DNA of 64,000 nucleotides from Bdellovibrionales bacterium (GTDB taxonomy: Bacteria > Bdellovibrionota > Bdellovibrionia > Bdellovibrionales > JAUICD01), in the NCBI GenBank assembly GCA_965197425.1, contig CBDANC010000015.1, forward strand, positions 64,001 to 128,000, written 5' to 3'. The notes beneath the pieces were generated by a model that was given only the letters and a program-made list of their open reading frames with translations, had not been told where the DNA came from and made no database searches. Below, piece by piece: positions 27,872 to 35,864 of this stretch. Both the position numbers and the translations under genes were made by a program. Numbering within the stretch: position 1 is the first letter of the stretch; each line of letters opens with the position of its first letter.

Positions 27872-30031
27872 ATGACAAAGGATATAAAGGGAATTTTATG
27901 GCTGTTTGGTGCGGTCTTTTTATTTTTGTGTTTATACAGCTATAACCCTCTTGATCCTTCTTTTAATTCTATATCTAGTAACTTAGGCAAGATACACAAC
28001 ATGTGTGGTATTGTTGGGAGTTTTTTATCTGATGCCCTTTTACAGATTTTTGGTGTAGCTGCTTGGGTATTTGTATTATTTTTCTTGCGGTGTGCGGTTC
28101 TTAGTTTTAAAGGGTATGGGTTACAGATAACCAAGTCAAATGTGCTGATCTGTATTGTACTTCTTGCAACTTTACCTAGTATATGTTCACTTTATTTGCC
28201 CAGTTCCCCTTATGGTTTAAATATTTTAACTGGGGGCGTAGTAGGCCTTTTGGTATCCAATGGCCTTGTAAATATTTTAAACCCTCTTGGCGCTGGGGTT
28301 GTGCTCTGGACCTTCTTTTGTATTTTTATCATTTTTTGCGGTGGTAGGGGCCTTACATTTAATCTTTTTAGAAGTGCGTATAAATTTCTCTATTCGGTTA
28401 TTTTCAATGTGCTTTATTTTTTTGGTGCTAGTAGGTTAGTTTTTTATTTTAGGCAAAAATTTCAAAAACCAAAAGACATTCAGAGTTATTCTGATTTGAG
28501 GGGAGACTATGAGGTTTTTGATATTGAGAAAGAAAAGGTTAAAAATTCTTGTATTCCTAAGTCTCAGGAAAACTGGCTATTTCCTAAGTTAGGCATGTTA
28601 TCTAGTGCTACTACTGCTAGAGTTAGAATTGATGATCATACGATAAAGCGAAGTATTTCTATTTTAGAGAATAAGTTAAATCAGTTTGCTGTAAAGGGTG
28701 TGGTTGTATCAGTAAAGTCTGGCCCTGCGGTGACCTTGTATGAGTTTAAGCCAGAAGTTAACGTAAAGATTAGTAAAATTACAGATCTTGCTGATGATTT
28801 AAGTTTAGCTTTGAGTGCTGAGTCAGTGAGGATCATAGCTCCTCTCCCGGGTAGAGATGTTGTAGGTATTGAAACTTCTAATCCTAATAGAGATATTGTT
28901 TATTTGAAGGATATTTTGGAGGATAGTAGTTTTTGGGATGAGGGAAAGAGCCTTCCCTTGGTTATGGGTAAAAGTGTAAACGGTTCTTGTCAGGTAATTG
29001 ATCTTAGAAAGATACCTCATTTGTTGGTTGCTGGCACAACTGGTTCTGGAAAATCTGTTTTTATTGTTTCTATAATTACGGGTCTTTTATTCAGGCATTC
29101 GCCTAAGACAATGAGGCTTATACTTATTGATCCAAAGCAAGTTGATCTGAGTGTATTTCATAATATTCCTCATTTATTAATGCCTCCTATTAAGGATGTT
29201 AGCCAGGCTGTTGTATCTTTGAAATGGGCCATAGCTGAGATGGAGAAGAGATATAGGTCGATGTCTGAGTTTGGTGTAAGGGATTTGGATAGTTTTAATA
29301 AGGTTGTTTCAAAGTTGTCTGAAAGTGAAAAAGCTCATTATGAAAAGATAAATCAAGAACCTAAGTTTTATTATACTAAGCAGCCTTATATAGTGATTGT
29401 TATAGAGGAGTTTGGGGATTTAATGGCAGTGGATAAGGCTAATGTGCAGCACTTAGTAGTGAGATTAGCCCAAATGGCAAGGGCATGTGGAATACATTTA
29501 ATTTTATCTGTACAAAGTCCTAGAAGGGATGTGGTTACTGGTTTAATAAAAACAAACATACCAGGTAGGATTAGCTTTAAGGTAGCTAGTAAGATTGATT
29601 CCAGGGTTATCTTGGATGAGTCGGGTGGTGAGAGGCTTTTGGCTAAGGGTGATATGTTGTTTATAGCTCCTGGTATTGGAAAACCAGCTAGGTATCATGG
29701 CCCTTGGGTGAATGAGATGGATGTTGAAAAAATTGCTACATTTTGGGAGCAGCAGTCTGAGGATGAATACGACCCTGTTGCTGTAGACATGTTGAATCAA
29801 TCTTCATCAGAAAATGGTATGAGCTATTTTAATAGTTTTAACAAAGACAGCATGTATGATGAGGCATTGGAGTTTGTTCAATCTCAACAAGAGGTTAGCG
29901 TATCTATGCTTCAGCGCAAATTCCGTTTGGGATATCCTAGGGCTGCTAGGATTATTGAAACTTTTGAAAAAGAGGGTATTGTTAGTGTTCCTCAAGGAAG
30001 CAAGCCCCGTCAGGTGCTAAAACAGCAATAG
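27872..30031 (+). CDS. ftsK: DNA translocase FtsK
   Basis: N-terminal 4TM domain, PHLLVAGTTGSGKS, IDPK, gamma domain LQRKFRLGYPRAARII. Confidence 0.97.
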   Translation: MTKDIKGILWLFGAVFLFLCLYSYNPLDPSFNSISSNLGKIHNMCGIVGSFLSDALLQIFGVAAWVFVLFFLRCAVLSFKGYGLQITKSNVLICIVLLATLPSICSLYLPSSPYGLNILTGGVVGLLVSNGLVNILNPLGAGVVLWTFFCIFIIFCGGRGLTFNLFRSAYKFLYSVIFNVLYFFGASRLVFYFRQKFQKPKDIQSYSDLRGDYEVFDIEKEKVKNSCIPKSQENWLFPKLGMLSSATTARVRIDDHTIKRSISILENKLNQFAVKGVVVSVKSGPAVTLYEFKPEVNVKISKITDLADDLSLALSAESVRIIAPLPGRDVVGIETSNPNRDIVYLKDILEDSSFWDEGKSLPLVMGKSVNGSCQVIDLRKIPHLLVAGTTGSGKSVFIVSIITGLLFRHSPKTMRLILIDPKQVDLSVFHNIPHLLMPPIKDVSQAVVSLKWAIAEMEKRYRSMSEFGVRDLDSFNKVVSKLSESEKAHYEKINQEPKFYYTKQPYIVIVIEEFGDLMAVDKANVQHLVVRLAQMARACGIHLILSVQSPRRDVVTGLIKTNIPGRISFKVASKIDSRVILDESGGERLLAKGDMLFIAPGIGKPARYHGPWVNEMDVEKIATFWEQQSEDEYDPVAVDMLNQSSSENGMSYFNSFNKDSMYDEALEFVQSQQEVSVSMLQRKFRLGYPRAARIIETFEKEGIVSVPQGSKPRQVLKQQ

Positions 30032-30083
30032 GGCGTTTCTTAAAAGCTTCTATTTTGTCTATTAAAGTTAAATCAGCTTATTT

Positions 30084-30155
30084 GCATCATGAAACAGGCA
30101 TTCGCAACAAAAAGAGAACAAGTCCCCTTATTTGTTGCTCATTAGCCTCACCTTT
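30084..30155 (-). repeat. Modular repeat family, short unit
   Basis: Reverse complement AAAGGTGAGGCTAATGA-GCAACAAA...TTTGTTGC-GAATGCCTGTTTC (variant but paired outer stem). Confidence 0.8.
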
Positions 30156-30166
30156 AAATTTGTTTA

Positions 30167-30202
30167 TGACAAAATTTGTCTGTCTGTATGACAAATTTTG
30201 CA
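30167..30202. promoter_or_regulatory. Tandem palindromic sites, putative enhancer-binding-protein UAS
   Basis: TGACAAAATTTGTCT (30167) and TGACAAATTTTGCA (30189), 22 bp apart, about 90-125 bp upstream of the predicted sigma-54 start. Confidence 0.6.
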
Positions 30203-30264
30203 GAGTATTTTGCTAAAAATATCGCTAAACCCTGAAATTTGGTGTTTATGGGCGGTTTTTGGTA

Positions 30265-30280
30265 TGGCATGGCAGTTGCT
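30265..30280 (+). promoter_or_regulatory. Sigma-54 (RpoN) -24/-12 promoter
   Basis: TGGCATG-GCAG-TTGCT, GG-N10-GC, one mismatch to TGGCACG-N4-TTGCW. Confidence 0.78.
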
Positions 30281-30290
30281 ATATATAAGG

Positions 30291-30365
30291 GTACAACACA
30301 CTCTCTCCTTACCACATGCTTTTACCGTGTGAGCCCCCTTTCACCGGTAAAAGCATGATTTTTTT
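30291..30365 (+). ncRNA. Putative sigma-54-dependent small RNA (~75 nt)
   Basis: Begins 12 nt after the -12 C; no plausible ORF; C/U-rich 5' arm (CACUCUCUCCUU) and a terminator hairpin with a CCCCCU loop followed by U7. Confidence 0.6.
30315..30365 (+). terminator. Intrinsic terminator
   Basis: 13-bp perfect stem CATGCTTTTACCG / CGGTAAAAGCATG, extended by GTGA/TCAC, then A-TTTTTTT. Confidence 0.85.
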
Positions 30366-30368
30366 ATA

Positions 30369-30480
30369 AACACTGATTGAATCTGCTAATAAACCGGCTT
30401 GATTCAATTGGCTTTTCATATTGAAATATGTTCTATCTTTGCCAATTGAAAGAACCTCCTCGATGGTCGGTTTGTTGGTT
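30369..30480 (+). repeat. Modular repeat family, degenerate unit with module B
   Basis: AACACTGATTGAA..TTCAATTGGC...GCCAATTGAAAGAACCTCCTCGATGGTCGGTTT. Confidence 0.72.
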
Positions 30481-30496
30481 TTTATGGGTTGGTTTT

Positions 30497-31315
30497 ATGG
30501 TTTCTAACATTTTCAAGCATTTTAGCGGGGCTAAGATCACATTTGATGGTGAGGATGCTTTTGATTTTTTACAACGTCTTAGTACGCAGGATATTTTGCT
30601 GGCTGATAATCATCTAGTTCAAGGTATTTTTTTAGACAAAAGAGCCAGGGTTATTGGTCCTTTTTATTGTATTAGGGATAAATATTATCGTCTTATAGTT
30701 TCTGATGAGTTTAAGAACGATGTTATTTCTTACATAGAAAAAATGCATTTTAGTGAGGATTTAAAGTTTAGTGTAGAGAATATAGTTTGGACAGAGGAGA
30801 GATATATTGATACCCCAACGGAGACTGTGGCACATAAGTTAACAGATTGGAGTTTAGATGTAGTCTATAAGGGTGTGTTTTATGAGAAGGTTTTAGCAGA
30901 TGACATGAAACATGAATTCGAAAGGTTATCTTACATGGCCAAAAGTCCTGGTATAGATAATGTATGTTTTAAAAGTATTATGATATTAGACGGTCCATTT
31001 GATCACTTTATTTCCAGGAACAAAGGGTGTTATCCGGGTCAAGAGGTAGTGGAAAAAATTTACCATAATAGAAGACCCAAGGAGATGTTTGTGTGTCATA
31101 TAGAATCACAGTTAGATACCACGGGGAGGTATCCTCTTTTTTCTAAAAGCAGAAAAATTGGGGAATTTTTAAGCTCAATACCTGATGAAAATGTTGGTTG
31201 TAGCATCGCTTTAGCGTTTGTTAGGAGCAATAAATTTAAGGTAGGGGATATGTTAGATACTGAAGATGGTTTAATTGTTAAATTAGTTGGCAAGACCTCA
31301 GTAAGTTTTGAGTAA
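30497..31315 (+). CDS. ygfZ: YgfZ/GcvT-like folate-binding protein
   Basis: GEDAFDFLQRLSTQD, KGCYPGQEVV; the ORF-track N-terminal extension lies in the repeat. Confidence 0.85.
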   Translation: MVSNIFKHFSGAKITFDGEDAFDFLQRLSTQDILLADNHLVQGIFLDKRARVIGPFYCIRDKYYRLIVSDEFKNDVISYIEKMHFSEDLKFSVENIVWTEERYIDTPTETVAHKLTDWSLDVVYKGVFYEKVLADDMKHEFERLSYMAKSPGIDNVCFKSIMILDGPFDHFISRNKGCYPGQEVVEKIYHNRRPKEMFVCHIESQLDTTGRYPLFSKSRKIGEFLSSIPDENVGCSIALAFVRSNKFKVGDMLDTEDGLIVKLVGKTSVSFE

Positions 31316-35162: not shown

Positions 35163-35864
35163 ATGAGATGGATATTTTTCATACTGCTGCTTGCTTCCTT
35201 TGGTGCACAGGCACAAAACAAAGAAGCTAAAAGTTTTTTTATATCAGCTAAAGACGGTTTTCTTTTAGGTGGTCAGAAAACCAAAACAGTAGGTTCAGGT
35301 GCAGAGCTGGACTATGATAGCAAGATAAGCTTTGTTAACGGAGTGAATATTGGATATGTATTTAACTCCGTTGCACTCGATATGGGCATTTCATATTATG
35401 AAGCTATTTTGGATCTTAATGAATCTGGAAGTTTGCGAACACAATCAGTTTGCAGTTCCATAGGTTGTGTTGTGGGCGAGAGAAAGAATGTTTTGGTCTC
35501 GCTTGGTGGCACAGCATATTTTTTGAGTAACAAAAACTTAGTAAAGCCATACCTTACTCTGAGAGCTGGAATGAGCAGAAGCCATGTTATACTTAACTTG
35601 GGGGTAGATAAAACTGTTACCTCCGAACAGGGTATTGGTACTCGTGCAAACGCAGGTGTGGTGATATCTGATAGTAAAAGTTTTGTTCCTTTCGCTCAAA
35701 TTGGAGCAGGAATAGATCTTTCCTACGGTCTTGGTGTTGGCTATAAATTTATGTGGTTGGGGTCACACAGAGTTAATAAATTGTCAGGACTACAAGATGA
35801 ATTAGAGCTTAAAAACTCATTCAACCATATTGCTGAATTAAGACTAACCTTGCCTTTCAATTAA
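35163..35864 (+). CDS. Outer-membrane beta-barrel protein (8-stranded OmpA/Opa-like)
   Basis: Signal peptide, VKPYLTLRAG, AQIGAGID, amphipathic strands. Confidence 0.8.
   Translation: MRWIFFILLLASFGAQAQNKEAKSFFISAKDGFLLGGQKTKTVGSGAELDYDSKISFVNGVNIGYVFNSVALDMGISYYEAILDLNESGSLRTQSVCSSIGCVVGERKNVLVSLGGTAYFLSNKNLVKPYLTLRAGMSRSHVILNLGVDKTVTSEQGIGTRANAGVVISDSKSFVPFAQIGAGIDLSYGLGVGYKFMWLGSHRVNKLSGLQDELELKNSFNHIAELRLTLPFN

Follow-up and report, generated by a model that had tools for sequence, protein, structure and literature searches.

A predicted stand-alone sigma-54-dependent small RNA behind ftsK in a Bdellovibrionales genome and its likely kinship with an order-wide poly-C RNA

Introduction

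The intergenic region downstream of ftsK in a reduced genome of the Bdellovibrionales (G000; 1.60 Mb, 35% GC, 99% complete) raises the question whether a sigma-54-type promoter followed by a short hairpin is a gene in its own right and, if so, what its RNA might do. The window analyzed here is the entire 64,000-nucleotide stretch C15:64001-128000 of that genome, and the pertinent features, in window coordinates, are the following.

27872..30031, plus strand: ftsK, with Pfam FtsK domains; upstream context of the unit
30086..30160, no strand assigned: dispersed genome-specific repeat between ftsK and the enhancer; context, outside the unit
30168..30193, plus strand: predicted enhancer (bEBP) site made of two overlapping dyads, based on dyad conservation in relatives
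30265..30280, plus strand: sigma-54 -24/-12 promoter TGGCATGGCAGTTGCT, exact consensus, with rpoN in the genome
30291..30314, plus strand: predicted 5' single-stranded arm, 24 nt, unpaired in the MFE and centroid folds
30297-30310, plus strand: conserved seed CACACTCTCTCCTT within the arm
30315..30357, plus strand: terminator hairpin, 13 bp + 1-nt bulge + 5 bp, z -8.83, with the loop CCCCCT at 30334-30339
30359..30365, plus strand: U7 tract of the intrinsic terminator, seen in the sequence; T5 in the sister genome G001
30497..31315, plus strand: ygfZ-like gene, weak GCV_T match below cut-off; downstream context, not tied to the unit

The original prediction read this arrangement as a sigma-54-dependent small RNA that blocks ribosome-binding sites. 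The present analysis supports a stand-alone unit with an anti-Shine-Dalgarno-like arm and parts company with the prediction over the targets that it named. The best explanation overall, to which we assign a probability of roughly 0.6, is a stand-alone sigma-54 sRNA gene whose arm pairs with mRNAs without Hfq and blocks their translation.

The repeat at 30086-30160 is REP-like, contains a hairpin, is often clustered between genes in G000, and yields 46 blastn matches in that genome (itself included) versus 0 in G001.

Promoter, enhancer sites and sigma-54 machinery

Two TGACA palindromes had been proposed upstream of the promoter. At 30167, TGACAAAATTTGTC proves to be a genuine inverted repeat of the form GACA-N5-TGTC (dyad 30168-30180), whereas the repeat at 30189, TGACAAATTTTGCA, is imperfect and, together with the 30167 site, forms TGTC-N9-GACA (30177-30193). 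Measured from the box, G000 and G001 both have these two dyads at -97 and -88; in the genome G002 they lie at -106/-97, and three genomes of family f2 have the N5 dyad at -96/-97.

The proposed -24/-12 box is an exact consensus match at 30265-30280 and is retained in G001 as TGGCATGGATATTGCT. The strict form of the box is unique in the window (1 match versus 0.15 expected); since, however, 14 of 100 shuffled windows also contain a strict box, chance could account for the box taken by itself. Its setting is more distinctive: among the 69 boxes with at most one mismatch in G000, only that at 30265 is followed by a strong terminator (-25.4), and one other precedes a terminator, at -12.2. The predicted 5' end, the transcription start anticipated near G30291, falls where the -12 GC would place it.

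The genome was also expected to encode rpoN and enhancer-binding proteins, and indeed rpoN and seven genes with strong Sigma54_activat domains are present. In the NCBIfam scan of five of these seven activators, none was assigned over the cut-off and none passes the cut-off for GlrR. No match to Hfq was found in G000.

The predicted RNA

The predicted RNA spanning 30291-30365 has a folding energy of -25.4 kcal/mol (z -8.83), which 0 of 200 shuffles equalled; it comprises an open arm of 24 nt, an 18-bp hairpin whose loop reads CCCCCU, an A, and U7, and no alternative fold of the 75-nt RNA was found. The single-stranded arm of the original prediction is accordingly borne out, its 24 nt being unpaired in both MFE and centroid structures, as are the 13-bp perfect part of the terminator stem, the loop and U7, with the correction that the full stem comprises 18 bp rather than 13. 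The statement that there is no plausible ORF likewise stands: the only ATG-led ORF with its start in the unit has 17 codons, begins at 30316 within the stem and has no purine-rich site upstream. The distance from the end of the unit to the likely ygfZ start (30497), given earlier as about 130 nt, measures 131 nt. A search of 29500-31000 against Rfam 15, one of the checks suggested with the prediction, returned seven matches at E <= 10 and no family at gathering score; one of the seven overlaps just the last 20 nt of the unit. The unit is very probably transcribed as a discrete RNA.

Conservation in the sister genome

Among 60 relatives, only G001, a member of the same genus (g1), gave a clear blastn match (E 4.3e-17), and this match is confined to the promoter and the RNA. 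Behind its own ftsK, G001 keeps the enhancer dyads, the box, the arm and the stem, and the 14 bases of the seed CACACTCTCTCCTT are identical, while the flanks of the two loci diverge. The stem differs at two pairs: a G-C has become A-U through changes on both sides, and an A-U has become G-U. The gene downstream of the unit is a different one, with two other ORFs separating the unit from the ygfZ orthologue, which indicates a stand-alone unit independent of ygfZ. The C-rich exposed loop fared otherwise: it had been proposed as a pairing seed, and in G001 it is replaced by UGUUCU (TGTTCT in the DNA), in a molecule whose arm has no run longer than two C. Because the loop is lost while the arm is kept, the arm, and not the loop, appears to be the conserved pairing part.

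The suggested search for conservation downstream of ftsK thus recovers promoter, seed and stem in G001 only. No box was found within 450 nt downstream of ftsK at 28 of 30 ftsK loci, and the two loci at which the unit and ftsK are linked both belong to genus g1. Across the phylum, a seed-specific pattern gave 8/401 matches. Of the 36 seed-pattern loci recorded in all genomes, only L113 is a copy of the unit, namely that of G001; most of the others were inspected and taken as chance, and the lone metagenome match, which sits inside an unrelated ORF, is attributed to chance as well. The exact form of the unit seen in the window is accordingly restricted to two genomes, G000 and G001.

No FtsK gamma domain was found in G002 and G004, which are single-contig assemblies of 90-92% completeness. 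A CRISPR-like look also marks L399:5350-5600 in G001, where direct repeats of about 36 bp are separated by variable spacers.

An order-wide sigma-54 poly-C RNA

A pattern combining the promoter with a C-run and a T-run is present in 54 of 131 Bdellovibrionales genomes versus 0 with a reversed control; G000 and G001 themselves do not match this pattern. The RNA that it delineates is about 55 nt long and consists of the box, a G(T/C)A start, a poly-C arm, a GC-rich stem of the form GCG(G/A)CC(T/A)GG...CC(T/A)GGTCGC, a C-rich loop and a U-run. Across the order, the sequence is little constrained apart from two homopolymeric C-runs, which are retained, and the consensus stem shows two-sided changes at 4 of 8 pairs.

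A covariance model (R1) of the RNA alone, trained on 39 sequences drawn from the same 131-genome set, matches 96 of the 131 genomes, mostly with one copy each. Of the 39 non-training matches fetched, three were dropped at contig ends, and a sigma-54 box (<=2 mismatches) immediately precedes 25 of the remaining 36, a feature seen in 0 of 72 control windows. R1 also matches 8 of 66 genomes from beyond the order at E <= 0.5, three of them with a box.

The regions upstream of these RNAs are enriched in the two dyads that mark the window unit. TGTC-N9-GACA occurs in 25 of 76 cases versus 2.8 in shuffled sequence, although 11 of the 25 are close relatives that have it at a single position; for GACA-N5-TGTC the figures are 17 of 76 and 3.6. 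These are the two most enriched spacings, and at other sigma-54 promoters they are found in 4/28 and 3/28 cases, respectively. The start motif lies 11-12 nt past the box in 49 of 78 members as opposed to 3 of 28 other sigma-54 promoters, and the window unit has GTAC at the same 11-12 nt. The commonest genomic context, between amiA and rph, accounts for 26 of 50 loci; beyond it, promoter and RNA are kept together in many gene contexts and orientations, including loci followed by convergent genes.

An Rfam search of 12 related loci detected only a tRNA and one sub-threshold match away from the RNA, and the listings from our searches of the openly available Bdellovibrio literature contain no description of it. 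The order-wide RNA is uncatalogued, being absent from Rfam and from the literature searched.

Several variants deserve mention. No sigma-54 box is seen in the upstream sequence fetched for six RNAs of this family (L236, L240, L477 and L478 in G028 and G036, L481 in G270, and L482 in G387), which suggests a promoter switch in some lineages. The copy in G004 (L197, C1:2569616) is longer at its 5' end by some 90 nt, which fold into an additional AU-rich hairpin. In G003, the family copy (L085) is accompanied by two additional sigma-54 RNAs (L066, C14:5861, and L199, C35:19704) with C-rich loops and two to three hairpins. Outside the order, G096 (L298), G130 (L300) and G267 (L297) encode RNAs with a box and a C-rich hairpin, two of them with longer 5' parts.

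Relation of the window unit to the order-wide RNA

Judged by sequence similarity, the window unit does not belong with this RNA. Against R1, the window copy scores 8.2 bits (E 6.2), ranking 30th of 42 in its own window; genome-wide, the model finds no match in G000 and none at the G001 locus, and the stem of the window copy, CATGCTTTTACCG/CGGTAAAAGCATG, differs from the family consensus. A profile of the RNA alone finds neither copy. When the promoter is included, the unit ranks first in G000 (E 0.19) and fourth in G001 (E 27). A second match of a profile in G000 (C13:117407) is antisense within a coding region, has no box and was dismissed as chance.

The architecture and, in part, the genomic surroundings point to common descent. 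The order of parts in G000 is the same (box, start motif, pyrimidine arm, C-rich-loop hairpin and U-run), the loop of G001 not being C-rich, and G000 and G001 both contain the two dyads, whose distances from the box agree with those in G002 and f2. The copy in G003 is flanked by orthologues of the O-methyltransferase and oppD/oppF genes that lie 2-7 kb from the unit in the window, and that in G051 by the O-methyltransferase and oppD orthologues; the amiA-rph pair of G000 is 178 kb from the unit, so that the commonest context of the family is not shared. G002 and G004, which belong to the same family, have intermediate forms, and no other copy was found in G000 or G001. It is thus quite likely that the window unit is a diverged, low-GC copy of the mostly single-copy order-wide RNA of about 55 nt, with a replaced stem and with the poly-C rewritten to CUCUCUCCUU. 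We nevertheless do not file it as a member of the family.

Candidate targets

To look for targets, 1361 genes of G000 were called with a simple script, the start codons being set by Shine-Dalgarno (SD) energy only, and their leaders were scanned by RNA duplex folding. The targets named in the original prediction are not supported. The site GAGGAGAGA at dsbA is present as described, but with the arm the gene reaches only rank 131 of 1359, and the site is missing from the orthologue in G001. The fis gene ranks 720 (arm) and 33 (loop) of 1359 and the outer membrane protein gene at 35163 ranks 65 (arm) and 35 (loop); these two proposals, like that of lpdA, drew on the CCCCCU loop that is lost in G001, and we abandon them. 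Over 850 orthologue pairs of G000 and G001, the conserved top matches number 8, compared with 2-14 for shuffled arms, so that overall target conservation is no better than that of shuffled arms.

One gene nevertheless stands out.

G000 C15:398369-398833, minus strand: g1242, outside the window, encoding a 150-aa helical protein; also L480:1870-2334 and L375:10899-11351

In two related scans g1242 comes first of the 850 pairs, with helices of 10 bp and 11 bp between the arm and the SD plus spacer, though the two leaders differ. Shuffled seeds equal these helices in 2 of 100 cases when length and Watson-Crick count are combined, and 22 of 100 reach 10 bp by length alone. The gene is present in all 91 Bdellovibrionales genomes searched (61/61 and 30/30), its products being ~65-70% identical, and its called starts are GUG or UUG in 72 of 90 cases, as judged by SD energy. 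The protein has no Pfam or NCBIfam match; it has 1323 homologues, and the 120 listed are all named just 'hypothetical'. Its atlas matches are under 0.9, and the confident three-helix model (pLDDT 84) finds no PDB match at E <= 0.001.

A further test examined, in genomes that had played no part in selecting g1242, whether each genome's arm fits its own g1242 leader better than the leaders of other families. In the first set, 7 of 27 other genera fall in the best tenth by this own-arm test (rank test p 0.20), compared with 1/26, 0/23, 2/27 and 4/27 for control windows. In the held-out set, comprising the 25 of 30 genomes with a parsed RNA and sharing six genera with the first, 5 of 18 genera do so (Wilcoxon p 0.027; controls 1/18 each); for its 12 new genera the figures are 3 and p 0.11. 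Pooling distinct genera gives 10 of 39 versus 3.9 expected (binomial p 0.004); both the threshold of 0.1 and the gap in the pattern were picked post hoc, and related genomes do not count as independent. We set aside a naive permutation test, in which a control window scored p 0.004.

Genus g4 offers the clearest example, with an arm that bears no relation to that of the window. The entire genome of G005 (g4) contains the 12-base complement of this arm at just two places, the RNA gene itself and the start of g1242, and G054 has it at these two places and at one mid-gene site; in three other genomes it does not lie at g1242, and the pattern thus matches g1242 in 2 of 5. Families f6, f8, f11 and f13, most of f12, and the genomes G002 and G045 show no own-arm preference. 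Taken together, these sequence comparisons lend modest co-variation support to g1242 as a target, and we consider it a tentative proposal, with odds somewhat short of even, that the order-wide 150-aa helical protein is one target of the RNA. The broader notion that all Bdellovibrionales share one sigma-54-switched RNA repressing g1242, with seed and leader co-evolved by lineage, is more doubtful still; on that notion, the co-evolved pairs would be poly-C/poly-G in some lineages, CUCUCUCC/GGAGAGAG here and ACGAUCCCAUAUCC/GGAUAGGGAUCGUG in another family.

The cell division gene ftsZ is a weaker candidate than g1242; we think it unlikely to be a target and retain it as a weak lead. The arm pairs with its leader at -21.5 in G000 and -17.0 in G001, and GGGG is found at the ftsZ ribosome-binding site in 33 of 48 genomes of the order versus 23 of 300 other gene starts; among phylum members outside the order the proportion is 9 of 20 (10 of 30 loci not being parsed), and the own-arm preference amounts to 1 of 26 genera. 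As a target of the loop, ftsA found no support. Separately, a small stand-alone LuxR-type HTH protein (G000 C12:109185-109517, minus strand; L391:7056-7385) is preceded by a GGGGG ribosome-binding site in both G000 and G001 and, judging from that site, is a candidate target for poly-C forms of the RNA.

Mechanism and alternative explanations

Under the preferred reading, an enhancer-binding protein would occupy the TGTC/GACA sites 90-100 bp upstream, and the bound activator would open the sigma-54 promoter. The resulting RNA of about 75 nt would end at its own terminator, and its open C/U-rich 5' arm would pair, without Hfq, over the SD and start codon of target mRNAs, blocking translation initiation. 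That the predicted RNA acts by base pairing at all is probable in our estimate.

Several alternatives have to be weighed against this reading, and the most conservative of them question the existence of a separate RNA. The hairpin could be the ftsK terminator and nothing else, the box being silent or incidental: it lies on the same strand, 284 nt past the ftsK stop, and the frequency of strict boxes in shuffled windows would allow for such a coincidence. Yet box, enhancer spacing and single-stranded arm persist in G001 despite the diverged flanks, and the promoter and RNA of the wider family are kept across many gene contexts and orientations, so that we regard this account as very improbable, although the hairpin may have an additional role in ftsK termination. 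Still harder to credit is a sigma-54 promoter with an attenuating leader of ygfZ-dsbA, or a short-peptide gene, as the same-strand position of ygfZ downstream and the 17-codon ORF might suggest; other genes follow the unit in G001, members of the family precede convergent genes and no alternative fold was found. The ORF, for its part, begins within the stem, lacks an SD and is not the same in G001.

The two remaining alternatives accept the RNA and dispute its action or its origin. Poly-C and pyrimidine tracts are bound by proteins such as Rho or KH-domain proteins, and the RNA could serve as a decoy or tether for a binder of this kind instead of pairing with mRNA. The order-wide retention of two C-runs with little other constraint, the failure to find Hfq and the whole-genome target scans that do not beat shuffled arms are all compatible with this idea. 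It sits poorly with the long lineage-specific arms complementary to the same gene start in g1, g4 and several genera, and with G001, which has neither a C-run in the loop nor one longer than two C in the arm; a decoy for CsrA, in the manner of CsrB or RsmY, was rejected for want of GGA motifs in 30291-30365, such decoys having repeated GGA motifs in their loops according to the part of the source consulted (PMC13443453). We judge the protein decoy improbable, and the same grade applies to the possibility that genus g1 has a sigma-54 anti-SD sRNA of independent origin, an analogue that replaced the poly-C RNA and has other targets. An analogue would account for the failed covariance model and RNA-only profile, the different stem and the ftsK context unique to g1, but not so readily for enhancer dyads at a matching distance, the shared +1 motif, the partial synteny with G003 and G051, the intermediates in the same family and the lack of any other family copy found in G000 or G001.

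Comparison with known regulatory RNAs

The stand-alone, arm-pairing sRNA favored here resembles several characterized systems in part. Pxr of Myxococcus xanthus (RF01812) shares with it a sigma-54 promoter and an Hfq-less host, as far as the consulted part of the source goes (PMC5568312), and pairs near the SD sites of several mRNAs, according to the accessible portion of a recent preprint (10.1101/2025.09.11.675593). Pxr, however, is a processed RNA of 108 nt with three stem-loops that adjoins the activator gene nla19, whereas the window RNA is about 75 nt long with one hairpin and no adjacent activator. The RF01812 covariance model matched 0 of 5 genomes at E <= 1, and identity with Pxr was rejected for the lack of a covariance match, of three stem-loops and of an nla19 neighbor. 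In RepG of Helicobacter pylori, a C/U-rich terminator loop pairs with a G-rich leader, and sigma-54 control is not stated in the sections consulted (PMC8295292). That loop resembles the loop of the order-wide RNA; in the window RNA, the conserved pairing part is the 5' arm, and there is no Rfam match. With C/U-rich pairing like that of RepG, and with sigma-54, no Hfq and SD-proximal pairing like Pxr, the window RNA would share the working mode of both while being a member of neither.

Vibrio Qrr1-5, controlled with LuxO, are base-pairing sRNAs driven by sigma-54 and an enhancer protein and depend on Hfq; here there is neither an Hfq match nor an Rfam match. GlmY and GlmZ of Enterobacteriaceae are larger and act through a decoy/Hfq mechanism. 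Their genes also have sigma-54 promoters, which GlrR activates from upstream TGTC-N10-GACA sites, as given in the part of the report consulted (PMC3045617). The spacing here is N9, and in the order-wide family N9 outnumbers N10 by 25/76 to 4/76; there is again no Rfam match. The window RNA is a member of none of Pxr, RepG and GlmY/GlmZ. Within the order itself, APsRNA1-7 and merRNA of Bdellovibrio bacteriovorus are intergenic RNAs of 98-655 nt, three of them with FliA promoters; in the portion of the paper available, the attack-phase sRNAs are reported as not conserved outside the species and no targets are shown (PMC3627812). Compared by these partial descriptions, the RNA described here is shorter (55-75 nt), of sigma-54 type and order-wide.

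Other sigma-54 loci of possible interest came to light in the course of the analysis. In G033 (L063, C6:165380), a sigma-54 box with upstream TGTC/GACA sites is followed by a longer structured stretch with no ORF on the strand, possibly another sRNA; in G002 (L075, C1:167045), a box is followed by a tandem array of a 16-bp repeat. Many identical boxes precede paralogous lineage-specific genes in G001, G002 (L070-L098) and G004, which suggests expanded sigma-54-controlled gene families.

Implications

What is new here is the rewritten seed together with a first specific candidate target that has modest co-variation support. The reduced 1.6-Mb genome is useful in that its non-homopolymeric seed removes the ambiguity of poly-C pairing and points to a specific, testable target. 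Should the g1242 pairing fail, one more uncatalogued sRNA of a known type would remain. How Bdellovibrio-like predators switch between attack and growth phases is poorly understood, and a tiny predicted sigma-54 RNA that at least 96 of the 131 genomes contain offers a direct handle on it. If the shared-module reading is true, the Bdellovibrionales would possess a riboregulatory module that is common to the order, works without Hfq and plausibly serves as a switch of their predatory life cycle.
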